A stretch of 64,000 nucleotides of DNA, taken from Bacteroidales bacterium (GTDB taxonomy: Bacteria > Bacteroidota > Bacteroidia > Bacteroidales > VadinHA17). The stretch is taken from assembly GCA_038248855.1 (NCBI GenBank), contig JBBRXA010000010.1, positions 1,315-65,314 on the forward strand, read 5' to 3'. Under the pieces are notes generated by a model that did not search any database, had not been told where the DNA came from, and saw nothing but the letters and a program-made list of their open reading frames with translations. The position numbers and the translations under genes were made by a program. The number at the start of each line of letters is the position of its first letter. Within the stretch, counting starts at the first letter, position 1. Below, piece by piece: positions 9,112 through 43,324 of this stretch.

Positions 9112-9119
9112 TATCTTTG
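9112..9119 (+). promoter_or_regulatory. -7 box (TATCTTTG)
   Basis: TAnnTTTG match 26 nt upstream of ATG 9146. Confidence 0.45.
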
Positions 9120-9145
9120 CCAAAATTCAAATTAAAACATAAAAC

Positions 9146-21271: not shown

Positions 21272-21525
21272 AAAAAATTTATTTTACTGCGGCAATAGAA
21301 TTACGCTTTTAATTAAACTTTTAATAGATGGCTGATTAATTGAAGCATAGACCCTCTGAATTTGTAAATGCCGCCTTCCGGAGAGCCTGTGACTTTTCCG
21401 GTCATCAAATAATTCATATATTAGTTGCTCTTTTGCAGATTCAGATAATACAAAAACATAAGTGCCCGCGGCGGAACCCGCAGGAGAGGCGAACCGAAGG
21501 CAGGCACAACAAAGGATTAAAATAT

Positions 21526-28080: not shown

Positions 28081-29925
28081 CTATTTGGTGCTCTTTTTTC
28101 CGAATTCAGGGTTTATTCTGAGCAGTGACACCGCAATAAGCGGTACTATGCTGCAAATCATCACCCACAGGAAGAAGTGGTTATAACCGAGCTGCTCCTG
28201 CAGCCAGCCCGCAAATAATCCCGGCAGCATCATTCCAAGTGCCATAAAGCCGGTGCAGATGGCATAATGCGCTGTTTTGTATTTCCCATCAGAGAAATAT
28301 ATCAGGTAGAGCATATATGCGGTAAAACCGAAACCGTAGCCAAACTGTTCAACAAAAACACAGATGTTGATTATAAGCAGGTTATCTGTCTGGGTAAAAC
28401 TCAGGTACAGAAACGTTGCTGCGGTCAGCAGCATGCTCAGGGTCATAGGCCACAACCATTTCCTCAGGCCGCCGGAGGCTGCCACTACACCTCCGATAAT
28501 ACCTCCCAGCGTAAGACCGGTTATACCAATTGTTCCATAAACCAAACCGACCTCGCCGGTGGTCAGTCCCAGACCGCCTTTGTCGATGGGGTCGAGCAGG
28601 AATGGATTTATCAGTTTCAGCAACTGCGCTTCCGCAAAACGGTAGGTCAGCATGAAGAAGAGGGCTACCCCGACCTGCGGTTTCCTGAAGAAAGTCGCGA
28701 ATGTCTTCCCGAACTCCCGCAGAACATCGGAGGGTTTAAGATCTTCACGGGGTGCGTCGGAATCCGGTCTTGGCAGGATAAACCTGTGCCAGAAACTAAA
28801 AACGAAGAACAATCCGGCAAGAACAAAGAAAGTTACCGCCCACGACATCGGGATGTTCCCCGACAGCCCCTCATAATTGACTGACGTATTATTTGTAAGC
28901 TTGGAGTCTGCCTGGAATACCATGTAAGCCGGTTTATCCCAGTTCGATTCGTTGAAGACAAGATGATCTCCCTGAATGAGGGCAATGCTCTTGTCGCCCT
29001 TTTTCAGGACAGTATTCAGCACAATCCTTTTCCCGGATTCAGGCGAGCCGGACAGCCTGACAGGGACAACCGCCACGCTTCCGGTCACTGCAGCGACACT
29101 GCCTCGCTCCTCGCCGAAGTTATCCCTGATCCAGGCTCCCAGTGGTTCAGAAACCTTTGTGGCCCACCACCCCTTGCTCTTTACTTTTTTTCCCTCCGGC
29201 TGCACAAAACCGTAACCCAGGTTGGAGGCCCTGATCGAATCCAGGAGTATACTCAGGCTATCCCTGTCAACGGTTTGCGTGCTTATCTTCAGAGAATCGT
29301 GTTCAAGAAAAAAGTACGTCTCACCCCTGCTCCCGGGTGCTGCCGCAACATATGGCACCTCGAGTACTGTTTTGGAGTAACCGGGTGATGCCTCGATGAA
29401 GACCGAAACGGGCTCCCTGCCTGAAGAGCTTTCAAGAAATCCTGCAAGAATTACAAGAAGTCCCTGCCCGGTGATTGTGGCAACCCGGTAAAAGGTGCTG
29501 CGGATGCCCACATACCTGGCCTGCTGGTTGGTATTCAGCCCGAGCATGTAAAAACCGTCTGCCGCTATATCATGGGTGGCTGAGCCGAATGCCAGAAGCC
29601 AGAAGAAAGCCAGGGTGATCTTGAAAAAGAGTGACGCCGGAATGGTAAGGGCGATGCTCGCGAAACCTAATGCCAGGACAAGCTGCGTAATAACAATCCA
29701 CCATCTTTTGGTTTTGAGCATATCAACCAGCGGGCTCCATATCGGTTTAATGACCCAGGGCAGATAGAGTAAACTCGTGTACAGGGCTATGTCGGCATTG
29801 GAGATGCCCATTCGCTTGTACATGATCACAGATACTATATTAACCGCTACATAGGGTAACCCTTCAGCCAGATAGAGTGAGGGTATCCATGCCCAGGGTG
29901 AACGGGTTTTGTTTTGTGCTGTCAT
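28081..29925 (-). CDS. ampG: AmpG-family MFS muropeptide permease with a 190-aa inserted domain
   Basis: N-terminus is ..PSLYLAEGLPYVAVN..., with LYLPWVIKPIWSPLVD plus a KTKRWW motif-A-like loop. I hand-count 12 hydrophobic segments. A non-hydrophobic block spans residues ~166-358. Confidence 0.75.
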   Translation of the reverse strand: MTAQNKTRSPWAWIPSLYLAEGLPYVAVNIVSVIMYKRMGISNADIALYTSLLYLPWVIKPIWSPLVDMLKTKRWWIVITQLVLALGFASIALTIPASLFFKITLAFFWLLAFGSATHDIAADGFYMLGLNTNQQARYVGIRSTFYRVATITGQGLLVILAGFLESSSGREPVSVFIEASPGYSKTVLEVPYVAAAPGSRGETYFFLEHDSLKISTQTVDRDSLSILLDSIRASNLGYGFVQPEGKKVKSKGWWATKVSEPLGAWIRDNFGEERGSVAAVTGSVAVVPVRLSGSPESGKRIVLNTVLKKGDKSIALIQGDHLVFNESNWDKPAYMVFQADSKLTNNTSVNYEGLSGNIPMSWAVTFFVLAGLFFVFSFWHRFILPRPDSDAPREDLKPSDVLREFGKTFATFFRKPQVGVALFFMLTYRFAEAQLLKLINPFLLDPIDKGGLGLTTGEVGLVYGTIGITGLTLGGIIGGVVAASGGLRKWLWPMTLSMLLTAATFLYLSFTQTDNLLIINICVFVEQFGYGFGFTAYMLYLIYFSDGKYKTAHYAICTGFMALGMMLPGLFAGWLQEQLGYNHFFLWVMICSIVPLIAVSLLRINPEFGKKSTK

Positions 29926-29927
29926 GC

Positions 29928-32399
29928 TTAAAGCTTATTAAACTTGTATCCCTTGTTCGTGTAAAAATCAATAATCTCCTGCAGCCTGAGATATAACTTG
30001 TCACTCCTGGCCGGGTCCGTCCCCGGATGAATGAGTATCATGGCGCCATTCAGCCCCCCCGGTGCGCCCTCCTCAAATTCGGCCAGCCTCTTCACCAGAA
30101 AATCGGATGAACAGTAGTTTGCCATGTCAGGAGTCGTATAATCAGCATTGGTGCCTGTGCCCGGGGAGAAATTGATCAGGGTGAGGCCCGTCTCTTCGCT
30201 CCACCTGCTTATGGCGCTGTTGTACCACTCATACGGTGCCAGAAAATACTGAGGCTTCTGCTTCTTCAGTCCCGCCTTCTGCAGAGCTGCGAAGTTGTTC
30301 CTGAGGTCAGCATTGAATTGCTCCTTGCTTACCAGAAGCGTATCCCTGTCTTCCCAGGGCATATAAAGCAGGTGTGCATCGGAATGTGGTCCGAGATAAT
30401 GACCTTCCTTTATTATCCTGCCGGTTACCGGTGCCCACTTTTTGTTTCTAAGAAAATTTCCTGTAAGGAAGAAGGATCCTTTTATATTATTATCTTCCAA
30501 CACATTAAGAATATGCTCAAATCCCTCTCCGAATTCGTCTGCAGAAAAGATCAGGTAAATGTTTTTTTCATCCGACCCTTTTCTGATCACAGCGCCGTGG
30601 GTATCATACACATCACCCTGTGCACCTGCCCGTGCTTTCCTTCCCTCCTTCTCAAGGGTTGACAGGTAATAGCTCAGGCTTGCGGTACCGTCGAGGGTGG
30701 GCTCATTGGTACTGTAGTCCCCTATATCGTCATGGTATACCACTTTGCCTCCCTGGAAGGCAGCGTAAGGATCCGGCCTGAGCAGGGTCAGTCCCTTCAG
30801 ATTCTCATGGATTGCCTTGTTGATTGGCCCGTCAATCAGTCCTCCCGTGGTTGTCACGCCCAGGAACCGGGTGATGGGTGAGTGCGGATAAAGGGGGTAG
30901 TCGCCTCCTGCCGGCAGCCCGCATATCATGGAGGTGCCCCACGGGTTGCAGCCGAACAGCCAGTCTCTCATAGCGGCCTCCATGTGGTCATACCTGGCGT
31001 CTCCTGTAGCCTCACGGTATAGTCTGCACTGGGTCAGCGCTGCAGCTATGTAGTTATTCGAGCACCAGACAAAGGGTATCTTCACCTGGAAAACATCATT
31101 CTGATCACGCCGGTTGATAAGCTCCAGTCCCCTGCGCATGAATTCAGTGTATTTCCCCGAAAATTCAGTTTCAGACAGACCCAGACCGGCATGGCCCAGG
31201 TTAACGAATGGATAGAACTGGTAATGGCGTGCAGTGTCTTTTTCAATCCACGGAGTGTAAGGCTCCAGTGTGCCCCAGTAATCGGCCTGCACCAGGTAGT
31301 CGCTCTCCCCTGTAAGAGTGTATAACTCCCAGGCTGCAAGCTGCATGTCGTCAACATAGTTGTCCTCCTCGTAGAAATAAGGCGAGACGTTGCACGCGGT
31401 CTGGGTAGCCCCCAGGTCAGTCTGTGCAAACTCGAATGCATCGACGGATTTTGCAGCCAGTTTCTGTGCCAGTGCAGGATCACTCTTCCCGAACACCTTC
31501 GCTCCCATGGCAAAGACTGAGGCAAATTTACCTGCCGTGGAGGCTACTCCCTCAGTCCTGTTTTTGAATTCCGCAAGCCCCTGTGGCTTTCCGGTCACGA
31601 AATAGACCGGCCGGTAGGGACCGAGTCCGTAGTCAGCCTTATCATGGTTTGGTAGCCGAAAGCCGACGTGGTCACGGTCGTCAGCCACCTGGTTGTACAT
31701 CACTCCGCTGTCAGGGTTCATCTTAAGCAGCCACTCCAAACCCCATTTTACCTCGTCTAGAATATCTGGAATACCGTTACGGCCCTGAGAGCCTGCAGCA
31801 TCATGGGAGTCACCAAAAATCTCAGGAGATTTTTCGTATGCAAACATCATCTGGTAGACCGAGTTCGATGTGGTGGCCGTGTACCTTAGGTGATCGCTTG
31901 CATCATGGTAGCCGCCCCTGACGTCAATAACAGTGCCTGAGAGTGTCGGGTGATCAACGATCATGCCGTCATGTGAGTGACACGAGTCGGCCAGAAAAGG
32001 ATTATATCCGCATCGCTGCTGCCTGATATAGTTTAGTATGAAATCGGCGGTTCCGTCATAGACCCCGGCTCCGACCCGGAATGTTTCAGACCGGGTGCGG
32101 CCATATAAGATATAGTATCCTCCCGGTTCAGTAAGCTGCGAGAAGTCGAGCCTGGCTGCGGCTGCCATGCCCCATACAGAACCGTCATAAAATGTTGCAT
32201 TGCCAATGAATACCGCCTTGTCTGTCAGCGCATCACATACGGTGAATGAGGAGCCAACTCCCGGTTCCTGCGAGATATATACTGCAACCTTGACCGAGGC
32301 CGGAAGATAGCCAAGCTGGTTGATCCTGATCCATGACTGTCCGTAAATGCCAGTAAGGGAAGTACACAAAACCAGGATGAGAAGCAGTCTTTTCTTCAT
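29928..32399 (-). CDS. secreted GH9 glycoside hydrolase (Ig-like N-domain) fused to a CE4/NodB-like polysaccharide deacetylase domain
   Basis: Signal peptide, then WIRINQLGYLP (CelD_N-like). GGYHDASDHLRY and YHDDIGDYSTNEPT are GH9 signature-like. The C-terminal 230 aa carry HSDAH and LIHPG (NodB motifs). Confidence 0.7.
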   Translation of the reverse strand: MKKRLLLILVLCTSLTGIYGQSWIRINQLGYLPASVKVAVYISQEPGVGSSFTVCDALTDKAVFIGNATFYDGSVWGMAAAARLDFSQLTEPGGYYILYGRTRSETFRVGAGVYDGTADFILNYIRQQRCGYNPFLADSCHSHDGMIVDHPTLSGTVIDVRGGYHDASDHLRYTATTSNSVYQMMFAYEKSPEIFGDSHDAAGSQGRNGIPDILDEVKWGLEWLLKMNPDSGVMYNQVADDRDHVGFRLPNHDKADYGLGPYRPVYFVTGKPQGLAEFKNRTEGVASTAGKFASVFAMGAKVFGKSDPALAQKLAAKSVDAFEFAQTDLGATQTACNVSPYFYEEDNYVDDMQLAAWELYTLTGESDYLVQADYWGTLEPYTPWIEKDTARHYQFYPFVNLGHAGLGLSETEFSGKYTEFMRRGLELINRRDQNDVFQVKIPFVWCSNNYIAAALTQCRLYREATGDARYDHMEAAMRDWLFGCNPWGTSMICGLPAGGDYPLYPHSPITRFLGVTTTGGLIDGPINKAIHENLKGLTLLRPDPYAAFQGGKVVYHDDIGDYSTNEPTLDGTASLSYYLSTLEKEGRKARAGAQGDVYDTHGAVIRKGSDEKNIYLIFSADEFGEGFEHILNVLEDNNIKGSFFLTGNFLRNKKWAPVTGRIIKEGHYLGPHSDAHLLYMPWEDRDTLLVSKEQFNADLRNNFAALQKAGLKKQKPQYFLAPYEWYNSAISRWSEETGLTLINFSPGTGTNADYTTPDMANYCSSDFLVKRLAEFEEGAPGGLNGAMILIHPGTDPARSDKLYLRLQEIIDFYTNKGYKFNKL

Positions 32400-32400
32400 T

Positions 32401-33744
32401 TCAGTATTTTATTTCGAGAGTGGCATTTTTGAAATAGTGCATAAGTATTTCCCTGTATGTGTAACCTCCCGCTCCCATCACGGCCGCGCCTATCTGACAA
32501 AGACCCACACCGTGACCCCATCCGGCACCATGCAGGACGAAGGAGACCGAATCTCCGTGACTCATTTTTTCCACATAAAATGCAGAACTGTAAAGATGAG
32601 TTGCCGAAAGAGCTTTTCTTATCTCAAGCTCTTTACCGATGATAAGGGTCTTTTTGCTGCCCCTGATCTTCAGCCTGACTATTCTTCCTGATGTCCCCCT
32701 GGATAGAGGTACAAGGTCAGTGATAATTCCGAAGTCAATGCCGGTACGTTTTCTAACCAGGACACTCAGTTCTTGCTGTGTATATTCAACCTTCCAGCGG
32801 AAGAAGTCGTTTGTCTCCTGGTCATAACTGTTCAGGACCTGGGTAAGTGTCTTCTTGTCATTTGTATTACAGAAAGAATCAGGGTTGCCGGCTATCCAGT
32901 TCACTGCATTTACTTCATGTGTCAGGTCGGGCGGTAACACTGAGGGAGTGGGAGTATCGGCTAATCTCTGCAGATAGGGATGATTCACCGGCTCCCATAC
33001 ATTTTCAAAGATTTCCGTCACTCCCCCGCAGCATTTTGAATAGCGTGCGTCACATATAGCGTCAGCGTACATCAGTACTTCACCGCTCGTATCATTTATT
33101 GATTTCTCGACAATCGGGGTTGAGGCACGGGTGATTCCCTGGTAACGCTGGCAGTGATCATCAGCACACACATCGAAATTATGATGATCCTCACGGTCAT
33201 ACCAACGGGTAATTTCCCTGTCGGTCACGAAGCTCGTCCTGTATTCCGTCCTCCTCTCCCCCAGACGTTCACTCTTCTCTGTCTGAGCCAGCAGCCAGCT
33301 TCTTGAGATCACCGCATGAGCTTTCAGGAGTTCAGGGGATGAGGTGGCGCTCATCTCCGATGATATCACACTTATCAGGTAGTCTTCGATTGAGAGAATA
33401 TTGACTGCTGTCAGCCTGCCCTCTTCGGTAATAAATTTCAGCTTGCCCTTAAACGACTGGTCCTCATTGCGCTGCCAGTGAAAATTCACCCCGATTGTAA
33501 CAGCATGAAGCGTGAAATACGATCTGTCCGGGGCTTCCGGCATAAGGACAATCTCTGTCCCCACATCCACTTCCCGTTCATGACTGCGCAGTAAGATCCT
33601 GCCATTACTGTATAATGCGGTCCAGAGACCTTCAAGTCTCAATGATCCTCCTGCATCTGAAAAGGTTCCGGCAAGGGTGAATGTAAGTCCACCTCCCGAC
33701 ACTATTCCAACCCGGATTTCCGGGACATTAACTTGTCCGGTCAT
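32401..33744 (-). CDS. SpoIID/LytB domain protein, no detectable signal peptide
   Basis: YLISVISSEM, HCQRYQG and GHGVGLCQIGA motifs of SpoIID. The preferred ATG 33744 forms an ATGA overlap with the upstream stop. The track start 33789 also gives no hydrophobic N-terminus. Confidence 0.8.
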   Translation of the reverse strand: MTGQVNVPEIRVGIVSGGGLTFTLAGTFSDAGGSLRLEGLWTALYSNGRILLRSHEREVDVGTEIVLMPEAPDRSYFTLHAVTIGVNFHWQRNEDQSFKGKLKFITEEGRLTAVNILSIEDYLISVISSEMSATSSPELLKAHAVISRSWLLAQTEKSERLGERRTEYRTSFVTDREITRWYDREDHHNFDVCADDHCQRYQGITRASTPIVEKSINDTSGEVLMYADAICDARYSKCCGGVTEIFENVWEPVNHPYLQRLADTPTPSVLPPDLTHEVNAVNWIAGNPDSFCNTNDKKTLTQVLNSYDQETNDFFRWKVEYTQQELSVLVRKRTGIDFGIITDLVPLSRGTSGRIVRLKIRGSKKTLIIGKELEIRKALSATHLYSSAFYVEKMSHGDSVSFVLHGAGWGHGVGLCQIGAAVMGAGGYTYREILMHYFKNATLEIKY

Positions 33745-34676
33745 GGCAGATTTTTTATAAGGGGCGAAAGCTCTTCGTCGCTGAGACACACCTGTCCGAA
33801 GATATCAGATATGTCCTCAGCGGTGATTTTAATAAAGTCCTCTTCCCTCGGGGTTATGACAACGCCGCCCATATCCACCGAGGCGGGACTGAGAATTATT
33901 TTTTTATTATCTCCGGCAAAAAACTGCGACGGTCTGTGAAGCATCCGGGGAATGACATGTACAGTCCATATACCCTTGGAAAATGATGTCAGAATATTGA
34001 GCATAGGTTCCGGTCTGTCAGGCTGAATTAGCCTGAAACGCGAATAAAACTCTTCAAAGCAGAGGGTAAGTTCATCAGGATTGGTGCCTTCGATTGTTAC
34101 CATCCCCCTCATATAATTTTTCCACTGCCACAGTTTGATATCCCCTTTCCGGGATATCAGGGAGCAGTTGTTTTTCCCTGCAAAGTCCTTTTCTACCGGC
34201 AGAAATCCCTTATTTCCCGCCTGGAAATGAAGATGATCAGGTGCTGAGGCGCCGCATTGAGGCCCATTATAGAAGATTACAAAATCTGGTAATTCCCTCG
34301 CAAGGGAGAGCATTATTCTGAAACTGTTAAGTATCCTCTGGTCTGTGTGCAGATCAGCCACTATTGTAAGATGCCTGTTGAAGATCGGGAAGGGGTTGAC
34401 AAGCAGGGTCCAGCCTTCCCCAAAGGGGAGCCCCTGCTGCTGCAATGGCCTGTTTTTCGCGCAAAGGAAACACGGTCGGGCTTCTATGGACCTGGAATCT
34501 ACTTTCGCTACGGATGATGTTATGCGGCCGGGATTGAACTGAACCATGAGGTCATAAGTCCCGAAACCAATAATCCGGGTCCTGACGTTTTCAAGCTGTT
34601 CATAGTTTACCCGGGCCAGATCCCATTTGCTTACCTGGCTGATGAAAAGTTGGTTTACACTCTCGGAATAACTCAT
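33741..34676 (-). CDS. DUF4922 protein; GalT-branch HIT-like nucleotidyltransferase/phosphorylase
   Basis: LVNPFPIFNRHLTIV...FYNGPQCGASAPDHLHFQ parallels the Ap4A phosphorylase/GalT motif (..N.G..aGAS..H.H.Q). HLHFQ is encoded at 34221-34235. Confidence 0.6.
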   Translation of the reverse strand: MSYSESVNQLFISQVSKWDLARVNYEQLENVRTRIIGFGTYDLMVQFNPGRITSSVAKVDSRSIEARPCFLCAKNRPLQQQGLPFGEGWTLLVNPFPIFNRHLTIVADLHTDQRILNSFRIMLSLARELPDFVIFYNGPQCGASAPDHLHFQAGNKGFLPVEKDFAGKNNCSLISRKGDIKLWQWKNYMRGMVTIEGTNPDELTLCFEEFYSRFRLIQPDRPEPMLNILTSFSKGIWTVHVIPRMLHRPSQFFAGDNKKIILSPASVDMGGVVITPREEDFIKITAEDISDIFGQVCLSDEELSPLIKNLP

Positions 34677-34690
34677 TTTCCGGTCCTGGT

Positions 34691-36169
34691 TTACTGTTTT
34701 TCCGAACTGAGCATCTTTTTACGTGCCAGAAGCTCGACTGTCCTGATCTTGTCCTTATATAAATTAAAGGTATTGCTTTTATTCACATCAAGGGCTGCGT
34801 CGGAGTTCTCATCCCACCTGCGGCACAGGTAGAGAGGTTCATAGATGCGTCCAATCCGGTAATGCCTGCTGATTGCAAGTCCCACGGCATAATCCTCACC
34901 ATAACTTACATTCGGAATTTTTATGCTTCTCAGCAGAGGAGTGTAGAATGCTCTCGGAGCACCCAATCCGTTTATGCGCAGAGCATTGTTGCGTCCATTG
35001 TCAGGCGTCCACTCCCGGTGATCAATCAATCCGGGGGGTATATCCTGAAGGTCGAAATTTACCATTTTATAAGTTCCTACAACCATGGCGCACTTTTGGT
35101 TGTGGAATGCCTCTGCCACCCTGGTGATTACTGTGTCATCGATATAGAGGTCATCACTGTCAAGCTGAACGGCATATTTTCCGCACTTTTCGCTGAAGAT
35201 GGCTTCATTCCAGCACCCGCCAATGCCAAGGTCCTTCCTGTCAGGAATTATGTGTACAATCCTGGTCTCTTTTTCAGCGAATGATCTTATGACTTCTGTT
35301 GTGCCGTCAGTTGAGTAATTGTCAACTATGATCAGGTTAAAACTGTAATTTGTCTTCTGGCTCAGCACCGATTTTATTGCATCACCCACGGTTTTTACCC
35401 TGTTCTTTACAGGAATGACCACCGATACTTCAGTATCAAATTTGTCTGCATCAGGGGCAATCTCCATGAAAACCGGTTTAAGCCATGCATTTATATCCTT
35501 AAGATGTTCAGTGCAGGCATTTTCCATCTCGATCTGAACAGCCCTGTTCCTCGGGTCAACATAGTCAAACTGCTTTTCTCCCGTCTTCCGTGTGTCACTC
35601 TCTACCTCAGAATAAAGCAATTCCTGGATATGCACCAGACTGCCGTGCTGCGAAATCTTAAGCCTCAGGTCATAAAAGCCGGCATACTGGTAACCGTGTA
35701 CCATTCTCATGCATGCATTCCTGAATGCGGTGGCACGGTAAAGGATCACCGAACCGAAGTTAAAGTCATCACGAAGGCTTCCCTCCTGGTAATCTGTGAC
35801 CGGGTGAGGCGACAGCCGGCCGTCGCGGTTTTCATAATAGTCTGAATACACGAAGTCTGCATCACTATCATCGCATACCTGAATCATGCGGTCAAGGCCA
35901 AATTTTCCGAGATCCAGAGGGGAAGTCTTGCCGTAAATCAGAATGTAATCAGTATCAGCAGACACTGCCATTTTTTTTACCGCCTCCGTTGAGGCAAACC
36001 CTTTTGCCTTTATCAACCCGGTCACGCTCGCGGTATCGGCCCTGGAATGATCTTCGGGGACGACTGCAAAAATACCACTGACGATTCCGGACCCTTTCAG
36101 AGAGGCGACGGTGATGTTAAGTGATTCATTGTCTGATAAGGGGACAAAGCATGTTATCTTTCTGTTCAT
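34691..36169 (-). CDS. family 2 glycosyltransferase with two GT-A-like halves
   Basis: C-terminal half is canonical: VSVVIPVKNR...IIVDNYSTDGT...QLDSDD. The N-terminal half is degenerate GT-A-like (DYILIY...CDDSDADFVYSDY). No signal peptide or TM segment. Confidence 0.75.
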   Translation of the reverse strand: MNRKITCFVPLSDNESLNITVASLKGSGIVSGIFAVVPEDHSRADTASVTGLIKAKGFASTEAVKKMAVSADTDYILIYGKTSPLDLGKFGLDRMIQVCDDSDADFVYSDYYENRDGRLSPHPVTDYQEGSLRDDFNFGSVILYRATAFRNACMRMVHGYQYAGFYDLRLKISQHGSLVHIQELLYSEVESDTRKTGEKQFDYVDPRNRAVQIEMENACTEHLKDINAWLKPVFMEIAPDADKFDTEVSVVIPVKNRVKTVGDAIKSVLSQKTNYSFNLIIVDNYSTDGTTEVIRSFAEKETRIVHIIPDRKDLGIGGCWNEAIFSEKCGKYAVQLDSDDLYIDDTVITRVAEAFHNQKCAMVVGTYKMVNFDLQDIPPGLIDHREWTPDNGRNNALRINGLGAPRAFYTPLLRSIKIPNVSYGEDYAVGLAISRHYRIGRIYEPLYLCRRWDENSDAALDVNKSNTFNLYKDKIRTVELLARKKMLSSEKQ

Positions 36170-36178
36170 AACCTCTGT

Positions 36179-39100
36179 TTACTTTCTTATAAGGAATTCA
36201 AGGGTCTGTTTCATCAGCCTGTTCCTGTCGGTTTCGGATTTAACTGTCTCAAATGGAAAACCCAGCACCAAAGTTCTGTTTTTTCCGCGGTGTATTACGC
36301 CTGCTGAGGTATTATTCTCGGTGTACCTGAAAGCAGTGACCGATGATTTGTCAGCAGGAACAATGGCATCAGTGGCTTCTGCACCGTAAACTTCACCTGT
36401 TTGCTCAGTATTGAATTCCACCGGGCCGCTGAAGAGGGGAGCGGCAATATCAGTTGGGCTTACTGCACCTTTCTTTACAGCGTGCCCCGTCATTGCCCTG
36501 AAATGCAGATAATCGGCTGCAAAAGCCATAACAGATGTATCTGCTGAGATGCGAAGATCTGTTCCCACATAGGATCCTGACATGAAGATTGATATGCCGG
36601 CTTCGGTAATCGCTTTGATTTTACGTGTGAATTCCGGGGTGTATATCTGAAAATCAAGTTTGGTACTGTCATATGCAGCTGCCGTCGTCTTTTCTTCGCC
36701 GAAAATCAGATCTGCGACCTGATACGGAGAGATGTCAAAATCGGGACGGCTGAACACCTCATCACTGACGGAACAGAAAGAGTAACCTGCGGCCATGATG
36801 GCTTTACCGTGAACAGAGGCAAAGTCAAAAGTGTTACCCGGAATTATTTTCCCTTCCATATCAGACCAGGAGGCTCCCCAGCCGGGATTGTCATCATCGA
36901 TCCACGGCAGACTGCGCTCAAAGTCATACTGATCGCCGGTGGTGACAATGTCATAACCGTCTGCCACACCCCGGTCTCTCCACCACGCCACTCCTGCCAT
37001 TCCATTCCTGTCAAACCATTCAGGACCAGAGGTACGGTCAAAACCGTTGACAATCAGCACTCTGGTTTCCTCTCCCCTTTTCAGTCCCACAGCAAGAGTC
37101 TCTGACTCGAAGCTTTCACCCCCGTCATTGAAGGCAGTGACCCTGAAACTGTAAACAGTGTCATAGTGTGGCAGTTCTACTACTGCCGAGGTTTCAGTCA
37201 CGTCAAATCCATTATCGAATCCGTTGTCACCGGTGCGGGTGTAAATCCTGTAACCTGCAGGCTGTGCCGAAGGCTCCAGAGGGTCCTGCACAGGAGCCCA
37301 GCTGATTTTTACACTTCTGCTCTCAAGGGGAATAATTGCCAGGTCAGTGACGGGAAGCGGTTGCACAGTATAGTCTCTGGCCCGGTCAGATGACAGGTAC
37401 CTGAGTATTCCTTTATAGACAGCGCGGCTTACGTGGAATCTGAAACGGGGATCCAGGCCGTAACGCTGGTCTCCCTGGTTCTGATGCGAGAGAAGTTCCA
37501 GCAACATTGCCGGTACGGCGGGGGTCCTGGCTTCCGAGTAGGATCTGTCCCACAGCCCGCGACGGGTCCACTGAGGATTGAACAGCACTTTTACATCCCC
37601 GACTATCTGAGTCTGAATCATGTCAGTAAGATCACGGCTGGCCATCCGGCTGGTGCCGTCAGGAAACTTTCCGCCTCCCGCAGCGGTGGAATAGATGCCA
37701 AGGGTTCCTATTATGGAGTCATCAGGTGTGACCCCGGCATCAGTGTGAAAAGCGAGGGCCAGATCAATGGGAATACCAAGGCCCGATGCCTCCCCTGTGC
37801 CTGCCCCGGGTTCAGCCGGGCCTGCAAGGTAGTTGACCCAGGCACCGCGTGACATATAATCGTCATTATAGTCGTTCCTGTTTTTGTTCGGCGTATAAAC
37901 AAGAGTATCCGGCATTCCCGCATACTGCAGATAATACCTTGCACCCTCCAGGTATCGGGGTTTTCCGCTGAGTTTCCATGTATGGCTGACAGTGTCATTA
38001 TGAGCTTGCAGGGTTTCTGCCGGTGAGGTTGCATTGAGAGACCACTGGTTGGAAATCAGGTCATCAGAAGGGCGGCGCGCCACATTCCCCATGCCTCCCC
38101 CGAACCTCACGGCATCAAGGGCAGTATACCCGTTATCACCTGAAGTGACCGTGACAGCCCCTGTGGATTCGTTTTTGCCGGCGTTAAACTGAAATGTTCC
38201 AAGATAAATCCAGGTGCCTCCCCCGACAGTCTGATTGACGACAAACGAGGTGTTTCCTCCGCTGTGCCTGACGGTGTACCTGACAGCATTACTATTGTCC
38301 GCCGATTGCGGATAGGAAACATATACAGAATAATTTCCTTTTTCCGGAATGTCTGCAATGTAATCTGCAGTACCCTCGCTGAATCTCAGGGAGGTCCCCT
38401 TGCTGAAAGGATTGTCACCTGCAAACAGCGTATCAGTCAGAAGAAATCCCTCACCTGTCGCTTCCTGCTGACCGGAAATGTGTATGACAAATTCCGATTC
38501 ACCCGATGAGCGGTCGTTGTCAACAATAACTTCATTGACCTGTGTGTCTCTTTCCCTTGGCAGTAAGACAGTTGCTCCTGAGTTTTCAAGCATCCTGGTG
38601 AGGTAGGGCAGAACATAGCCCATCACCGATATGTCTTCAACAGTCCCGAACAGTTTTGCCCTCTGCCACTCCCAGCGGTCAAGGGGCTGATCAAAATAAT
38701 AACCATGACTGTGCCAGATCGCCAGGTTGGTTTCAGCCAATCCCGCAGAAGGAATAATACCGTTGATTTTCGTGATGAACACCGGTCTGTCAGCGGATCT
38801 GCGCAACAGCCTGGCGGTGTCGGCCGGAAGGGACTTCCTGTAGTAGTTCGGGATAAGGTCACGGATTAAAAATCCGTTTGTACGGATATTAATGCTGTAA
38901 TTACTGAACTTCCTTCCAAGAGCCTCTCTAAGTGAATTCTCGAAGACAGCAAGGGTTCCTTCCCTGACCGGATTATATGAAAATGCAGCAGGAAACCACA
39001 GGTCAATACTCCCGGCTTTGTCGATACTCAGGGAGTCAGGCCTGATTCTGTCGGGAAAATGCCATTCTGCAACGGGATTGGTCCAGGAATCAAGTTTTGT

Positions 39101-39208
39101 CAATGCTTTTTTTTCGAGCCTTGCCTCTCTCTGTCCTGAAAGACTGGCGCCACTGATCAACATTAAAATGATCACCGCGTATAATAACCTTCCTGATCGG
39201 GTTCTCAT
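36179..39208 (-). CDS. secreted multidomain protein: split MurNAc-L-Ala amidase-like fold, golvesin-C-like insert, FN3 and an unknown C-terminal domain
   Basis: Signal peptide. IWHSHGYY ... ALAFHTDAG ... MLLELLSHQN resembles Amidase_3 metal and catalytic positions. NYSVYVSYPQSADNSNAVRYTVRHSGGNTSFVVNQTVGGGTWIYLGTFQF matches my memory of the golvesin C-terminal-like domain. FN3-like region: SVKISWAP...YSFRVTAFNDGGES. Confidence 0.5.
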   Translation of the reverse strand: MRTRSGRLLYAVIILMLISGASLSGQREARLEKKALTKLDSWTNPVAEWHFPDRIRPDSLSIDKAGSIDLWFPAAFSYNPVREGTLAVFENSLREALGRKFSNYSINIRTNGFLIRDLIPNYYRKSLPADTARLLRRSADRPVFITKINGIIPSAGLAETNLAIWHSHGYYFDQPLDRWEWQRAKLFGTVEDISVMGYVLPYLTRMLENSGATVLLPRERDTQVNEVIVDNDRSSGESEFVIHISGQQEATGEGFLLTDTLFAGDNPFSKGTSLRFSEGTADYIADIPEKGNYSVYVSYPQSADNSNAVRYTVRHSGGNTSFVVNQTVGGGTWIYLGTFQFNAGKNESTGAVTVTSGDNGYTALDAVRFGGGMGNVARRPSDDLISNQWSLNATSPAETLQAHNDTVSHTWKLSGKPRYLEGARYYLQYAGMPDTLVYTPNKNRNDYNDDYMSRGAWVNYLAGPAEPGAGTGEASGLGIPIDLALAFHTDAGVTPDDSIIGTLGIYSTAAGGGKFPDGTSRMASRDLTDMIQTQIVGDVKVLFNPQWTRRGLWDRSYSEARTPAVPAMLLELLSHQNQGDQRYGLDPRFRFHVSRAVYKGILRYLSSDRARDYTVQPLPVTDLAIIPLESRSVKISWAPVQDPLEPSAQPAGYRIYTRTGDNGFDNGFDVTETSAVVELPHYDTVYSFRVTAFNDGGESFESETLAVGLKRGEETRVLIVNGFDRTSGPEWFDRNGMAGVAWWRDRGVADGYDIVTTGDQYDFERSLPWIDDDNPGWGASWSDMEGKIIPGNTFDFASVHGKAIMAAGYSFCSVSDEVFSRPDFDISPYQVADLIFGEEKTTAAAYDSTKLDFQIYTPEFTRKIKAITEAGISIFMSGSYVGTDLRISADTSVMAFAADYLHFRAMTGHAVKKGAVSPTDIAAPLFSGPVEFNTEQTGEVYGAEATDAIVPADKSSVTAFRYTENNTSAGVIHRGKNRTLVLGFPFETVKSETDRNRLMKQTLEFLIRK

Positions 39209-39413: not shown

Positions 39414-40268
39414 ATGATACTCATAGCCGACAGCGGATCCACAAAGACTGAATGGAGGGAACTGACTGAGGGAACATCCGGGAAGTCATACAGATCAACG
39501 GGACTCAATCCCTTCTTTCTGAAAAGTGACGATATAGTTGCGCTCCTTCAAACAGAAATGTCAGAAGTTGAAGGTGTGCCGGTCAGTCAGATATTTTTTT
39601 ACGGTACGGGGTGCAGCAATCCTGCCAAAATTGAAATAATAAGCATTGCCCTGAAGAAGTTTTTCGGTGACGCCGAACTGTTTGTCGGCAGTGACCTCCT
39701 CGGCGCTGCCAGGTCTCTGTGTCAGAACGAGGCGGGTATAGCCTGCATAATAGGCACAGGATCAAATTCATGCTATTATGACGGCAAAAAGATTGTCTCC
39801 AATGTTTCGCCCCTCGGTTATATCCTCGGTGATGAAGGAGGCGGGGCAGTAATAGGGAGAAAACTGGTCTCCGGGGTTCTCAAAAAACAGCTTCCGGGTA
39901 TTGTAATTGAGAACTTTTTCAGGGCATATCCAATGTCACCGTCAGAAATTCTTGACAGTGTCTACAACATGCCTTTTCCGAACAGGTTTCTGGGCCAGTT
40001 TGCCAGGTTTATCGCAGAGAATATCCATGTCCCTGAATTGGAGGCAATAATCACCTCAAGTTTTGATGAGTTCCTCTTAAGGAATGTGCTCCAGTACCCC
40101 GAGGCAAGAAAATTTCCGGTACATTTTACCGGGAGCATCGCCTGGCATTTCAGGCCTTTCCTTGAAGACCTTTTGATCAGGTACAGGCTACAGCCGGGAA
40201 TATTTTCATTGACCCCTATGGAAAACCTTGTCCGGTACCACCTTCACAATCAGCAGAAAGCATTATGA
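39414..40268 (+). CDS. BadF/BadG/BcrA/BcrD-type sugar kinase (GlcNAc/MurNAc kinase, MurK-like)
   Basis: MILIADSGSTKTEW N-terminus and GTGSNSC motif of the ASKHA BadF-type kinases. 4-nt overlap with murQ. Confidence 0.7.
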   Translation: MILIADSGSTKTEWRELTEGTSGKSYRSTGLNPFFLKSDDIVALLQTEMSEVEGVPVSQIFFYGTGCSNPAKIEIISIALKKFFGDAELFVGSDLLGAARSLCQNEAGIACIIGTGSNSCYYDGKKIVSNVSPLGYILGDEGGGAVIGRKLVSGVLKKQLPGIVIENFFRAYPMSPSEILDSVYNMPFPNRFLGQFARFIAENIHVPELEAIITSSFDEFLLRNVLQYPEARKFPVHFTGSIAWHFRPFLEDLLIRYRLQPGIFSLTPMENLVRYHLHNQQKAL

Positions 40269-41104
40269 GCAGACCTTCCTCATCAAAGCCGGCAATAAGT
40301 ATCACCGAGTCGCCTTCCAACTTTGAAAACCTTGATAATATGTCTGTGCATGAATTGCTGACAAACATAAATCATGAAGATGCCAAGGTGCACCTGGCAG
40401 TCAGGGCTGCTATTCCGCAGATTGAAAATCTTGTTGACCATATACTCAGGAGGATGAATAAGGGCGGCCGTCTTTTTTATCTTGGTGCCGGAACCAGCGG
40501 AAGGCTGGGCGTGCTTGACGCTTCGGAGATACCTCCCACTTTCGGGGTCTACGATAAGGTGATCGGACTCATTGCTGGCGGTGAAGTAGCCCTCCGCAGA
40601 CCCGTTGAATCAGCTGAAGATGACCCTAATAAAGCCTGGAATGAGCTGGAGATCTTCAACATCAACACCAAGGATACAGTGATAGGAATAGCTGCATCCG
40701 GAACCACTCCGTATGTCATCGGGGGAATACAAAACGCGCGCGCGAAAGGCATACTTACCGGATGCATAACCTGCAATCCGGGCAGCGCCATTGTCAAAGT
40801 GACTGAATTCCCCATTGAGGTTGTGGTAGGTCCTGAATTTGTCACCGGCAGTACCAGGCTGAAGGCGGGCACCGCCCAGAAGATGATCCTCAACATGATA
40901 ACCACCACACTCATGATCAAGCTCGGAAGGGTCAAGGGCAACAAGATGGTCAACATGCAGCTCTCAAACAAGAAACTCATCGAACGAGGCACAAGAATGA
41001 TTGTGGAGGAGCTTAATATCCAGAGTGACGCTGCCCGGATACTTCTGCTTCAGAACGGGTCTGTCAAGAAAGCCCTTGAGGTTTACAGGGAAAACTATAA
41101 GTGA
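40265..41104 (+). CDS. murQ: N-acetylmuramic acid 6-phosphate etherase
   Basis: GRLFYLGAGTSGRLGVLDASEIPPTFG, SGTTPYVIGG and STRLKAGTAQK motifs, SIS domain, 279 aa. Confidence 0.93.
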   Translation: MSRPSSSKPAISITESPSNFENLDNMSVHELLTNINHEDAKVHLAVRAAIPQIENLVDHILRRMNKGGRLFYLGAGTSGRLGVLDASEIPPTFGVYDKVIGLIAGGEVALRRPVESAEDDPNKAWNELEIFNINTKDTVIGIAASGTTPYVIGGIQNARAKGILTGCITCNPGSAIVKVTEFPIEVVVGPEFVTGSTRLKAGTAQKMILNMITTTLMIKLGRVKGNKMVNMQLSNKKLIERGTRMIVEELNIQSDAARILLLQNGSVKKALEVYRENYK

Positions 41105-41829
41105 TTATGGAAGACATATTCAGTAAAATCGGTACCGGACTCACCCTGAGCCAGAAGATCGAAAGGAAAATCGAGGAAGCGATAAGGCAGAAAAAGCTTC
41201 TTCCGGGAGCCAAGCTGCCAACAGAAAAGGAACTCTGCGCCCAGTTCGCCGTCAGCCGCACTGCACTGAGGGAAGCCCTGCGGCGTCTGAGTGCCCGCGG
41301 ACTTATTGACATTAAAAAAGGCAGTGGAATGTACATTACCGAGCTGAAGATCGAAGACGCCATCAACTCGCTGCATCTCTTTTACGACCTCAGGTTCAAT
41401 TCCGATCTCATCCTGCAGATCATTGAGGTAAGGCGCCTCTTTGAACCTGAGGTAGCACGACTGGCGGCTCGCAACAGGACCGAAGAGGACATCAAGATCC
41501 TGCAAAAGAACCAGATAGAACTTGAAAAGTGCAACCCTGACAACACCCAGCTCGAGGTTGACCTCATAAACAGGTTTCACATGAACCTTTCCAAATCAAC
41601 AGGGAACCCAATTGTAATTATCAGTCTTGAACCCGTTTACTCACTCCTGCCGCGGATGCGAAACCTCATTTACGGAAACATAGAGGGAGAAAAGGAGTAC
41701 ACCCTCAAATACCAGAAGGAGCTCCTCAGGGCACTGAGGGAAAAAGACAGCCAGAAGGCATACGAGGTATCTGTTGCCCTTCTTGAACGCAACAAGGAGA
41801 TTTATAACAAGTATTTCAAACCCAGCTGA
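41101..41829 (+). CDS. GntR family (FadR/FCD subfamily) transcriptional regulator
   Basis: N-terminal winged HTH (LPTEKELCAQFAVSRTALREALRRLSARGLI) plus a helical FCD-like C-domain. Overlaps the murQ stop by 4 nt. Confidence 0.85.
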   Translation: MIMEDIFSKIGTGLTLSQKIERKIEEAIRQKKLLPGAKLPTEKELCAQFAVSRTALREALRRLSARGLIDIKKGSGMYITELKIEDAINSLHLFYDLRFNSDLILQIIEVRRLFEPEVARLAARNRTEEDIKILQKNQIELEKCNPDNTQLEVDLINRFHMNLSKSTGNPIVIISLEPVYSLLPRMRNLIYGNIEGEKEYTLKYQKELLRALREKDSQKAYEVSVALLERNKEIYNKYFKPS

Positions 41830-41854
41830 CCTTCCGGCAGTCATTAATTCTGCA

Positions 41855-43300: not shown

Positions 43301-43324
43301 TGAGTTACAAAAAACATACACTAA

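Follow-up and report, generated by a model that had tools for sequence, protein, structure and literature searches.

Organisation of the locus

The window analysed here, a stretch of 64,000 nucleotides from a Bacteroidales bacterium (contig JBBRXA010000010.1), contains at positions 32401–36169 three minus-strand genes encoding a GT2 glycosyltransferase, a DUF4922 protein and a SpoIID/LytB protein. This trio is situated inside an 8-gene operon with gaps of 1–23 nt, surrounded by proteins with signal peptides and an AmpG permease, and a murK-murQ unit runs in the opposite direction. The features of the region are the following:

36179–39208, minus strand: exported 1009-aa protein, operon gene 1, with Golvesin_C, fn3 and weak Amidase_3 matches (Pfam)
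34691–36169, minus strand: GT2 glycosyltransferase, 492 aa (Glycos_transf_2)
33741–34676, minus strand: DUF4922 protein, 311 aa (PF16269)
32401–33744, minus strand: SpoIID/LytB protein, 447 aa from the ATG (PF08486, TIGR02669)
29928–32399, minus strand: exported fusion of GH9 and CE4 (polysaccharide deacetylase), 823 aa (Pfam)
28081–29925, minus strand: AmpG-family muropeptide MFS permease, 614 aa, multiple TM segments (TIGR00901, E=2.5e-45)
25130–28072, minus strand: cytoplasmic FAD/Fe-S oxidase (YdiJ/GlcD-like), 980 aa
22779–25106, minus strand: NagB-like glucosamine-6-P deaminase with a PIG-L-like region, 775 aa, last operon gene (NCBIfam NF002557, E=1.4e-55)
39414–40268, plus strand: BadF-type sugar kinase in the murK position, divergent unit
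40265–41104, plus strand: MurNAc-6-P etherase MurQ, divergent unit (TIGR00274, 308.8 bits against a cut-off of 302)
41101–41829, plus strand: GntR regulator, divergent unit
21526–22782, plus strand: exo-beta-N-acetylmuramidase NamZ of GH171 (NamZ_N, E=1e-83; NamZ_C, E=7e-38)

The GT2 stop codon is separated from the DUF4922 ATG by 14 nt, and SpoIID starts at an ATG that overlaps the stop codon of DUF4922 (ATGA, 33741–33744); both the coordinates and the Pfam/TIGR matches agree with the triad described in the first-pass annotation. An alternative GTG start would extend the SpoIID protein to 462 aa (32401–33789), and the same ATG start is called in an orthologous locus at 74% identity (L001, 448 aa). 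As also noted in that annotation, both neighbours of the trio carry signal peptides, MRTRSGRLLYAVIILMLISGASLSG in the 1009-aa protein and MKKRLLLILVLCTSLTGIYG in the GH9 and CE4 fusion, and an AmpG gene comes next, in line with hydropathy and the TIGR00901 match. The 1009-aa protein, which has homologues ahead of the trio in 36 of 47 loci, is likely a periplasmic muramoyl-L-alanine amidase. The permease possesses an unusually large insert of ~190 aa in its central loop. For the YdiJ/GlcD-like oxidase, D-lactate from MurQ is a plausible substrate, and in the Marinifilum homologue of the 775-aa protein the NagB-like and PIG-L-like domains are both clear. NamZ possesses a signal peptide if its start is M63. 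No GH3/GH20 NagZ-type enzyme is encoded within the window, and GT2 and SpoIID are its only cytoplasmic enzymes that attack glycosidic bonds; NagZ- or AnmK-type genes may sit elsewhere in these genomes.

The same arrangement is found in Tannerella forsythia, where the Tanf_08345–08385 operon is transcribed as one unit. Directly upstream of ampG-namZ1-murTKQ it contains Tanf_08350 (gtf), Tanf_08355 (gtf) and Tanf_08360 (lytB), none with an assigned function (PMC5388701; bioRxiv 10.1101/2021.12.02.470905). The cluster is already described in this species, but without interpretation, and the statement about it in the first-pass annotation was essentially right. Orthology is taken here from synteny and published annotation, and the 1009-aa gene is likened to the 'xanthan lyase' Tanf_08345 by the shared first-gene position.

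Conservation and cellular location of the trio

Synteny was surveyed in 80 species genomes from Bacteroidota and Ignavibacteriota. GT2 is located directly upstream of DUF4922 in 68 of 73 genome loci, the median distance being 12 nt, and SpoIID directly downstream in 63 of 77, the other 14 having no adjoining SpoIID. The 4-nt DUF4922/SpoIID overlap seen in the window recurs at 13 of 33 measured junctions, and AmpG follows the trio in 53 of 60 loci. All four genes occur together in 40 of the 47 fully flanked genome loci (~85%), at 43–64% protein identity, and because of this recurrence the arrangement is beyond chance. A sugar kinase homologue (37/47) and MurQ (31/47) are usually found nearby, so that the co-occurrence with ampG/murQ which the first-pass annotation had proposed to check is borne out.

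Hydropathy analysis revealed no signal peptide or TM segment in the three proteins of the window, with either SpoIID start. Among the orthologues, a hydrophobic N-terminus was detected in 0 of 53 SpoIID, 0 of 78 DUF4922 and 1 of 68 GT2 sequences, the single case being an artefact, in agreement with what had been noted for the trio. As flanking controls, 25 of 31 homologues of the 1009-aa protein and 20 of 22 GH9 and CE4 orthologues carry a hydrophobic N-terminus or signal peptide. The one marginal hydrophobic segment of GT2 (residues 19–37) has K, G and S inside and falls where the first GT-A strands would be. In addition, DUF4922 and SpoIID form continuous single-ORF fusions in L003, L022, P0175, P0205, P0207 and P0270, which derive from a MAG (L003), a Carboxylicivirga linearis isolate (L022) and four or more representatives of 50%-identity clusters. 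With the nucleotide-dependent DUF4922 domain N-terminal in these fusions, the SpoIID domain behind it is assigned to the cytoplasm. One GT2-DUF4922 fusion was also found (P0161). Altogether, the trio very probably is cytoplasmic and acts on AmpG cargo.

To our knowledge, every characterised SpoIID/LytB protein is extracytoplasmic, and a conventional annotation would place this one outside the cytoplasm too, as a lytic transglycosylase or 'amidase enhancer' with unrecognised export, GT2 and DUF4922 being unrelated envelope-glycosylation genes that happen to be in the same operon. This agrees with the T. forsythia lytB label 'amidase enhancer precursor' and with a glycosylation-related name once given to that operon (PMC5388701). 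However, such a reading appears very improbable in view of the missing signal peptide or anchor in all 53 orthologues, a conserved N-terminus beginning no more than ~5 residues from the first beta-strand, the fusions behind a signal-less HIT domain in several lineages, the SpoIID/DUF4922 overlaps of the translational-coupling type and the AmpG synteny.

Family assignment of the three proteins

The DUF4922 protein matches PF16269 over the whole model length (E=7e-60), with weak Ap4A_phos_N and GalT matches, and contains the motif FYNGPQCGASAPDHLHFQ. Residues H148, H150 and Q152 are invariant across 32 homologues with identity down to 35%, and H150 within H148-L-H150-F-Q152 is the predicted nucleophile. 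The likewise invariant C69-x-x-C72, His102 and His110 look like the structural metal site of GalT. An AF2 model (pLDDT 86, pTM 0.88) was compared using Foldseek, which returned Apa2 (4i5t/4i5w, E ~1e-10, TM 0.55–0.62) at the top, then At5g18200 and GalT, all nucleotidyl-His phosphorylases or transferases; the fold is thus akin to Ap4A phosphorylase, ADP-glucose phosphorylase and GalT. A GDPGP1_C domain is on record for its homologues, and GDP-D-glucose phosphorylase GDPGP1 and the related plant GGP/VTC2 family carry the domain of DUF4922 (PMC7041677, PMC9871823). Judged by sequence and fold, the protein belongs to the GDP-hexose phosphorylase (GDPGP1/VTC2) family within the GalT branch of HIT enzymes. 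The three points on which the first-pass annotation had let its proposal depend were observed as absent export signals, retained co-occurrence and an intact catalytic His arrangement (HxHxQ).

The Glycos_transf_2 match of GT2 (E=1e-20) is confined to residues 249–383. A canonical GT-A domain makes up the C-terminal half, and its D283-N284, D337-S-D-D340 and E425-D426 are kept in 95% or more of 67 sequences. The N-terminal 235 aa constitute a second conserved domain, which is marked by the motifs YQxGSLRDDFxFG and FDYVDPxNRxxQxEME and gave no sequence match in Pfam or PDB. The best PDB match of GT2 is the chondroitin synthase K4CP, an enzyme with two GT-A domains. Of the two GT-A halves claimed earlier, the canonical one is clear, while the degenerate second one is not confirmed: a profile comparison of both halves (E=0.018, probability 2.6%), although collinear, is no more than suggestive.

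The SpoIID protein matches PF08486 (E=1e-23) and TIGR02669 SpoIID_LytB (E=1e-47, above cut-off). Its catalytic Glu (E130 in SSEM), a His/Cys cluster (H187/C193/H197/C198) and GWGHGVGLCQIGA are invariant, residues 9–118 form an extra N-terminal beta-domain, and the conserved N-terminus begins within ~5 residues of the first beta-strand. The orthologues are 65–93% identical. Based on the family assignments, the trio is predicted to depend on nucleotide sugars.

Five loci contain DUF4922 without GT2, SpoIID or AmpG (a Golvesin-DUF4922-NamZ paralogue, e.g. L028), suggesting that DUF4922 can work without GT2 and SpoIID. Such DUF4922-only PG-peptide clusters would suit a proofreading role, in which DUF4922 removes aberrant NDP-sugar during an amino-sugar flood, or a trio that makes or destroys a cytoplasmic muropeptide-derived signal instead of carrying bulk flux. 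According to PMC7041677, a surveillance role over the NDP-sugar pool was proposed for animal GDPGP1 (Adler et al. 2011). However, bulk metabolism is the better fit for genes so strictly co-transcribed with a transporter and catabolic enzymes, for the high SpoIID identity and for the fusions. The trio is also not linked to any cytoplasmic sensor, and the GntR regulator belongs to the murK-murQ unit; the chance of such a role is slim.

Possible role in the breakdown of imported disaccharides

In T. forsythia, growth on GlcNAc-MurNAc and GlcNAc-anhMurNAc needs AmpG, an AnmK orthologue is not predicted and the route 'remains to be explored' (PMC7670621); anhMurNAc is not phosphorylated by its MurK (PMC5790795). 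The trio provides the best candidates for the missing steps in the Bacteroidota breakdown of imported cell-wall disaccharides. We propose a conserved cytoplasmic module coupled to AmpG that would process imported GlcNAc-MurNAc and GlcNAc-1,6-anhydroMurNAc and fill the place that NagZ and AnmK have in the E. coli pathway. Weighing a well-supported general role against speculative chemistry, we give this proposal slightly below an even chance as a whole; that the trio works in the catabolic direction is somewhat probable.

First, the SpoIID-like enzyme, which retains the lytic-transglycosylase catalytic Glu, would act on the 1,6-anhydro bond and open the ring of (GlcNAc-)anhMurNAc, i.e. the usual family reaction in reverse; the acceptor would be water or the hydroxyl group of a sugar. 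Second, the inverting GT2 would run backwards on the beta-1,4 bond of GlcNAc-MurNAc (disaccharide + NDP -> NDP-alpha-GlcNAc + MurNAc). Third, DUF4922 would, via nucleotidyl-His150, convert NDP-GlcNAc and Pi into GlcNAc-1-P and regenerate NDP. The net result would be an energy-conserving disaccharide phosphorolysis without a glycoside hydrolase, whose products would pass on to MurK/MurQ, the YdiJ-like oxidase and the NagB-like deaminase. The pairing of a reverse GT2 with a HIT phosphorylase as written is less probable than not, and an anhydro-ring role of the SpoIID-like enzyme equally so. Glycosyltransfer is reversible, with a catabolic precedent in sucrose synthase followed by UDP-glucose pyrophosphorylase, and phosphorolysis of disaccharides in the cytoplasm is widespread among anaerobic Bacteroidota; we know of no described reverse-acting GT2 or ring-opening SpoIID. 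Counted against the proposed module are the five DUF4922-only loci, the 14 without adjoining SpoIID and nine carrying a GH3 + beta-lactamase-fold gene. Neither phosphoacetylglucosamine mutase nor another GlcNAc-1-P user recurs in the neighbourhoods of the 80 loci, which also counts against it.

Denuded glycan is the substrate of SpoIID enzymes, and AmpG might import longer peptide-free strands, (GlcNAc-MurNAc)n, with SpoIID acting as a conventional lytic transglycosylase on MurNAc-GlcNAc bonds while GT2 and DUF4922 handle GlcNAc-MurNAc bonds. The exported amidase-like proteins of the locus would strip the peptides, and the intact catalytic Glu and the AmpG insert are also compatible with this. 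Nevertheless, it seems clearly improbable, since AmpG is characterised as a disaccharide transporter, T. forsythia included (PMC7670621), and further anhMurNAc ends would arise from conventional lytic transglycosylase activity in organisms without AnmK (PMC7670621, PMC5790795).

The first-pass annotation had favoured salvage, re-activation or re-polymerisation over catabolism. Here, DUF4922 would make or interconvert nucleotide-amino-sugars, either GalT-like (UDP-GlcNAc + MurNAc-1-P <-> UDP-MurNAc + GlcNAc-1-P) or from sugar-1-P and NDP (yielding NDP-sugar + Pi), and GT2 would work forward onto a cytoplasmic acceptor, so that fragments are re-activated for the wall. Such exchanges are GalT-branch HIT chemistry, GalT is among the fold matches, and forward is the normal GT2 direction. 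T. forsythia, a MurNAc auxotroph, depends on scavenged MurNAc for UDP-MurNAc, but its AmgK and MurU, described without mention of this operon, already fill this need (PMC7670621). Moreover, the cluster is widespread in the non-auxotrophic Bacteroides, Dysgonomonas and Marinilabiliales; among the 80 loci, genes of the AmgK-like (anomeric kinase), MurU-like or phosphomutase-like type do not recur in the vicinity of the trio; and a GT2 working forward ahead of a SpoIID that cleaves glycan would amount to a futile cycle. Anabolic salvage is therefore unlikely, and because the operon context is catabolic, with a YdiJ-like FAD/FeS oxidase and a NagB-like deaminase further along and murK-murQ facing it, the earlier preference for it is not supported.

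Gene content of the locus and its published counterparts

The three genes lie in a run of eight minus-strand ORFs between 39208 and 22779, which are spaced just 1-23 nt apart and whose families were assigned by Pfam and NCBIfam:

36179-39208, minus strand, Golvesin_C/fn3/weak Amidase_3 protein, 1009 aa
34691-36169, minus strand, GT2 glycosyltransferase, 492 aa
33741-34676, minus strand, DUF4922 protein, 311 aa
32401-33744 (or to 33789), minus strand, SpoIID/LytB protein, 447 aa (462 aa)
29928-32399, minus strand, GH9+CE4 protein, 823 aa
28081-29925, minus strand, AmpG-family MFS permease, 614 aa
25130-28072, minus strand, YdiJ-like FAD/Fe-S oxidase, 980 aa
22779-25106, minus strand, NagB-like protein, 775 aa

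The first-pass annotation gave both the 14-nt gap and the ATGA overlap (33741-33744) correctly, and the SpoIID gene starts at the same ATG in an orthologous contig (L001, 74% identical). From 39414, a BadF-type kinase in the murK position, MurQ (a TIGR00274 match above the cut-off) and a GntR regulator are encoded divergently, followed at 41774-44575 by a T9SS-tailed GH18 protein and a beta-lactamase-fold protein. The other flank of the operon carries NamZ, a YkfC-like NlpC/P60 protein, a YkfB-like epimerase and a SusC/SusD pair. Based on the gene content of the operon and both flanks, the whole region is therefore considered to serve peptidoglycan utilisation in an uncultured member of the Bacteroidales. 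The closest genome match to the window DUF4922 protein is 64% identical. A promoter and terminator scan of the region returned counts near shuffle expectation, using a consensus unsuited to Bacteroidota.

Several neighbours have unusual architectures. The AmpG homologue contains a soluble beta-rich insert of ~190 residues (residues ~165-355) between its two MFS halves, which is missing from the 432-aa Bacteroides AmpG (locus L079, 12298-13596). Directly after ampG, the 980-aa YdiJ/GlcD-like FAD and Fe-S oxidase is plausibly a dehydrogenase for the D-lactate released by MurQ; Bacteroides loci carry a more distant homologue (23-26% identity) at the same position. The product of the gene at 22779-25106 combines a long NagB-like deaminase with a PIG-L/LmbE-type deacetylase region, and both domains are clear in the Marinifilum homologue (L030, 2104-4086; E about 1e-19 each). 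This protein may be a bifunctional GlcNAc-6-P deacetylase and GlcN-6-P deaminase. The exported GH9 and CE4 fusion is kept in 20 of the best 80 of at least 596 loci; some GH9 members are exo-glucosaminidases, and the fusion suggests that GlcNAc-MurNAc is first deacetylated and then cleaved in the periplasm. At 18915-20060 and 20064-21236, the YkfB-type L-Ala-D/L-Glu epimerase shows a Tat/lipoprotein-like N-terminus (MKKRDFIKYGGLAAGAIITGCS) and the YkfC-like NlpC/P60 protein a signal peptide; these N-termini fit the periplasmic stem-peptide pathway postulated for B. thetaiotaomicron (PMC4600125). The mechanical ORF of NamZ (21340-22782) begins at TTG 21340, but M63 (21526) is the likelier start, because it results in a typical signal peptide (MKTTFRLSVRSLLVLCIAMTSACA).

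The nearest published counterpart is the Tanf_08345-08385 cluster of Tannerella forsythia, with the order 'xanthan lyase', gtf, gtf, lytB, ampG, ybbC/namZ1, murT, murK and murQ, which forms a single transcript under GppX regulation (PMC5388701). Taking that order as published, the window likewise encodes an exported protein, gtf, gtf, lytB, ampG and namZ with murK/murQ adjacent. Synteny in other Bacteroidales and the published annotations suggest that the trio is probably orthologous to Tanf_08350/08355/08360. However, murK-murQ is divergent in the window and downstream in T. forsythia, the MurT symporter of the T. forsythia operon is not found in the window, and the GH9+CE4, FAD/Fe-S oxidase and NagB-like genes are inserted in the window operon. 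In T. forsythia, ampG is up-regulated on peptidoglycan (Ruscitto 2017, PMC5388701; Mayer 2020, PMC7670621; Borisova 2021 preprint). The NamZ preprint lists the functions of Tanf_08345/50/55 as unknown and Tanf_08360 as a putative lytic transglycosylase (10.1101/2021.12.02.470905). The T. forsythia papers describe the middle gene as a second glycosyltransferase and LytB as a putative (precursor) lytic transglycosylase. They mention neither the HIT identity nor the predicted cytoplasmic location or the fusions described below. In the literature searched, no paper was found that characterises the trio or assigns it a function. The cluster itself is thus already in the literature as 'unknown function'; the present analysis adds what the middle gene encodes, the placing of SpoIID in the cytoplasm, the fusions, the linkage throughout the phylum and a concrete hypothesis for a recognised gap.

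Predicted families of the three proteins

The DUF4922 protein covers the complete PF16269 profile (E=7e-60, positions 1-146 of 146) and weakly matches the Ap4A_phos_N and GalT models. Close homologues and the L001 orthologue also carry an annotated PF26216 GDPGP1_C domain. The catalytic His arrangement reported in the first-pass annotation was borne out, as the HIT motif H148-L-H150-F-Q152 (H-phi-H-phi-Q) is invariant in 32 sequences of 35-73% identity and aligns to the motif of Apa2. The complete invariant set in these homologues comprises C69, C72, H102, H110, Q113, Y136-N-G-P139, G142-A-S144, P146, H148, H150, Q152, E223, N227, R244, R248 and S263-P264, in which the CxxC and His residues presumably resemble the GalT metal site. 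The AlphaFold2 model is confident (pLDDT 86, pTM 0.88), and Foldseek returned yeast Apa2 Ap4A phosphorylase as its best match (E=9e-11, TM up to 0.62), followed by Arabidopsis At5g18200 and E. coli and human GalT, all with probability 1.00. Profile, motif and modelled tandem-HIT fold together place the protein in the GalT branch of the HIT superfamily, as a predicted GDPGP1/VTC2-type member. GDP-D-glucose phosphorylase GDPGP1 and the related plant GGP/VTC2 family carry the DUF4922 domain themselves (PMC7041677, PMC9871823).

The whole-length DUF4922 match, the GDPGP1_C region of homologues, the H-phi-H-phi-Q motif and the tandem-HIT fold are the features shared with VTC2/GGP, GDPGP1, Apa2 and At5g18200. 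In contrast to these proteins, the window protein belongs to a bacterial (Bacteroidota) clade, 10-17% identical to solved structures, in which the CxxC is invariant as in GalT, and its genomic partners are GT2, SpoIID and AmpG. Its chemistry might tentatively be predicted as Pi-dependent cleavage of an NDP-sugar via a nucleotidyl-His. One representative protein of 483 aa (P0151) combines an exosortase-EpsH-like membrane fragment with a complete DUF4922 domain, which may be a gene-calling artefact.

The C-terminal half of the glycosyltransferase is a canonical GT-A domain (PF00535, E=1e-20, residues 249-383), and D283-N284, D337-S-D-D340 and E425-D426 are kept in at least 95% of 67 sequences. 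The profile match, the nucleotide-binding Asp and the DxD motif assign it to the GT2 family at the sequence level, with the two-domain chondroitin synthase K4CP as the closest solved relative. The N-terminal region appears weakly GT-A-like, without significance: hhalign of the N-half against the C-half gave a collinear alignment with E=0.018 and a probability of 2.6%, and a sub-threshold stretch aligns to the GT-A domain of K4CP. The N-half profile gave only a spurious match against PDB sequences, Pfam returned nothing consistent on 27 N-halves, and the DxD and ED motifs were not found in this half. Conservation is nevertheless strong over the N-terminal 235 residues, which have their own motifs; residues 120-216 include the near-invariant PVIDYQxGSLRDDFNFGS and FDYVDPKNRxVQIEME. 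Matching no Pfam or PDB family, this part is regarded as a separate conserved domain of unknown function.

The SpoIID-like protein scores 163.4 bits against TIGR02669 (cut-off 83.3) and matches PF08486 with E=1e-23. Against SpoIIDs in the PDB, E values are about 1e-12, and the B. anthracis and C. difficile structures align across the Glu motif, with E130 opposite the Glu of their G-E-M motif. We take this Glu to be catalytic and the His/Cys cluster to bind metal. Across 35 orthologues of 65-93% identity, no variation occurs at E130, H187, C193, H197 and C198 or in the GWGHGVGLCQIGA motif. The overall model is of medium quality (pLDDT 68.7), and its significant fold matches are SpoIID structures only; the extra N-terminal beta-domain (residues 9-118) is confidently modelled, and the fold search of the model gave no informative match for it. 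By domain models, Glu and His/Cys cluster, the protein is a predicted SpoIID/LytB family member. With SpoIID of B. subtilis, B. anthracis (4RWR) and C. difficile (5I1T) and the LytB 'amidase enhancer' it shares the domain match, the Glu, the His/Cys metal cluster and the GHGVG-SQ-GA motif. Unlike these, it is without membrane anchor or signal peptide, carries the additional N-terminal beta-domain and an insert of ~80 residues, and has a gene that follows that of a cytoplasmic nucleotide-dependent enzyme, with the two proteins fused in some cases. Its presumed substrate is an imported disaccharide, while known SpoIID/LytB proteins act on the sacculus; depolymerisation of longer imported strands is regarded as improbable.

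Predicted location, fusions and conservation

The location of the proteins was called by a Kyte-Doolittle scan, a hydropathy heuristic and not SignalP. No signal peptide or TM helix was found in the GT2, DUF4922 or SpoIID-like protein with either start, and the same scan detects hydrophobic segments in both flanking proteins and AmpG. To extend this to orthologues, a pattern scan of one genome per species was used, which gave at least 596 encoding stretches; the best 80 examined here span Bacteroidales, Marinilabiliales, Cytophagales and Ignavibacteriota. Among these best 80, a hydrophobic N-terminus occurs in 0/53 SpoIID, 0/78 DUF4922 and 1/68 GT2 sequences, the single GT2 case being discounted for its truncated start, and in 25/31 and 20/22 members of the two flanking control families. 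The absence of signal peptides and TM anchors claimed in the first-pass annotation therefore held for trio and orthologues, with the flanking controls positive. The window protein shows neither the anchor nor the signal peptide by which SpoIID/LytB members are recognised as extracytoplasmic.

DUF4922 and SpoIID are joined in one continuous ORF of 759 aa in locus L003 and of 758 aa in the isolate Carboxylicivirga linearis FB218 (L022). At least four representatives of 50%-identity clusters (P0175, P0205, P0207 and P0270) show this fusion too; the signal-less HIT domain is always N-terminal. Because the HIT and GT2 chemistries need cytoplasmic nucleotides, the SpoIID domain must then be cytoplasmic as well. 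The conventional reading as an exported LytB, for which the family's known members speak, is thus very improbable. A GT2-DUF4922 fusion was found once, in the metagenomic protein P0161. A second candidate, at L061, was rejected, as the DNA shows a TAA stop followed directly by an ATG in the same frame.

Among the best 80 of at least 596 loci, DUF4922 is immediately preceded by GT2 in 68/73 (median gap 12 nt) and immediately followed by SpoIID in 63/77 (median gap 4 nt), and AmpG is found at most 6.5 kb downstream in 53/60. The same 4-nt overlap is present in 13 of the 33 DUF4922-SpoIID junctions measured. In the 47 loci with at least 9 kb of flank on each side, the co-occurrence predicted in the first-pass annotation was confirmed: GT2, SpoIID and AmpG all accompany DUF4922 in 40, and a murK-like kinase is found in 37, MurQ in 31, a Golvesin-like protein in 36 and NamZ in 24. 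The exceptions comprise four loci with GT2-DUF4922-AmpG without SpoIID, three with GT2-DUF4922 alone, and five (L028, L035, L045, L046 and L054) in which DUF4922 lies in a Golvesin-DUF4922-NamZ paralogue arrangement without GT2 or SpoIID. AmpG is also absent from four of these five, and the downstream flank of the fifth is too short to score. These exceptions indicate that DUF4922 is the hub of the module and can function without the other two. In L028 (9962-12719), DUF4922 stands between the Golvesin-like exported protein and the NamZ paralogue (about 33% identical) with a 163-aa membrane protein in between, and YkfC, YkfB and a further exported protein follow downstream.

A possible route for imported disaccharides

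The trio is accordingly described as a conserved, co-transcribed, predicted cytoplasmic module of three enzymes tied to AmpG, with the catalytic motifs intact in each. The use of imported muropeptides by Bacteroidota is an acknowledged gap that covers gut Bacteroides as well as the periodontal pathogen T. forsythia. The latter cannot make MurNAc, requires AmpG for growth on GlcNAc-MurNAc and GlcNAc-anhMurNAc, and has no predicted AnmK orthologue (PMC7670621); its MurK does not phosphorylate anhMurNAc (PMC5790795). For Bacteroides, periplasmic processing by AmiA and YkfC/YkfB was proposed, which would leave GlcNAc-anhMurNAc (PMC4600125). In this setting, the trio very probably processes AmpG cargo for MurK/MurQ, and a catabolic direction seems somewhat favoured. 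The first-pass annotation had read the trio as a nucleotide-sugar-dependent cytoplasmic step and preferred salvage or re-polymerisation to simple catabolism. There are good grounds for a conserved cytoplasmic step that is linked to AmpG and probably depends on nucleotide sugars; that preference is unsupported. The neighbour census of the best 80 of at least 596 loci revealed no recurrent mutase, anomeric kinase or MurU-type gene, and anabolic salvage is considered rather unlikely. Proofreading or signalling, as a further alternative, is less probable still.

For the catabolic direction, we propose a tentative three-step scheme that gives every enzyme a role and would fill both missing steps. 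First, the SpoIID-like enzyme might open the 1,6-anhydro ring, as the microscopic reversal of the lytic-transglycosylase reaction. Second, the GT2 enzyme could conceivably run in reverse (GlcNAc-beta-1,4-MurNAc + NDP -> NDP-GlcNAc + MurNAc). Third, the DUF4922 protein would possibly catalyse NDP-GlcNAc + Pi -> GlcNAc-1-P + NDP. As a whole, the proposal remains speculative: Bacteroidota would cleave imported peptidoglycan disaccharides without a glycoside hydrolase or ATP, by a reversed Leloir GT2 with catalytic NDP and a GDPGP1-type HIT phosphorylase that recycles the NDP and releases GlcNAc-1-phosphate, with a backward SpoIID opening 1,6-anhydroMurNAc in place of AnmK.

In comparison with the recycling pathways of E. 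coli and Pseudomonas (AmpG-NagZ-AmpD-AnmK-MurQ; AmgK/MurU), the start, AmpG import of GlcNAc-(anh)MurNAc, and the end, MurQ and GlcNAc-6-P catabolism, are alike. However, no NagZ-, AmpD- or AnmK-type gene, and no GH3 or GH20, was found among the scanned ORFs of at least 200 aa in the 64-kb window, peptide removal is apparently periplasmic, and the middle steps would fall to three unrelated enzyme families. The nearest mechanistic precedents are sucrose synthase followed by UDP-glucose pyrophosphorylase, and glycoside phosphorylases such as the GH94 chitobiose phosphorylase, which follow the same logic of non-hydrolytic and energy-conserving disaccharide cleavage to a sugar-1-phosphate; the sucrose synthase route also uses a reversed Leloir transferase and an NDP-sugar intermediate. 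Other enzyme families are involved in these precedents, either GT4 with a nucleotidyltransferase or one GH-type phosphorylase; the analogy is functional only.

The genes of the trio are now specific candidates for this gap, one encoding a predicted nucleotide-sugar phosphorylase and not a second glycosyltransferase. An 'exported' SpoIID/LytB enzyme is read here as cytoplasmic, in some lineages fused to the predicted phosphorylase, and the module and AmpG occur together throughout the phylum. If the scheme is true, bacterial DUF4922 proteins would gain their first function and the SpoIID family its first cytoplasmic enzyme, and disaccharide phosphorolysis would have a new mode; the scheme would also bear on the consumption of immunoactive muropeptides by gut and oral Bacteroidota and on possible targets in T. 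forsythia.

Additional genes recur near the trio, encoding an HGSNAT-like acetyltransferase, an SSF/MurT-like symporter, an exported metallophosphoesterase with a PQQ propeller, a GNAT, GHL10, and a GH3 and beta-lactamase-fold fusion. The last is a single gene in nine other loci (e.g., L018, 2408-5113) and resembles the NagZ/AmiE pair of B. subtilis. In the Marinifilum locus L030, the gene of an AmiA-like (PF07313) lipoprotein amidase separates GT2 from DUF4922, and that of a cytoplasmic GNAT acetyltransferase separates DUF4922 from SpoIID (insertions at 8820-9704 and 11011-11943). GNAT recurs in 6 and the HGSNAT-like membrane acetyltransferase in 22 of the best 80 of at least 596 loci; this recurrence is a hint that it matters whether the imported sugars are N-acetylated.
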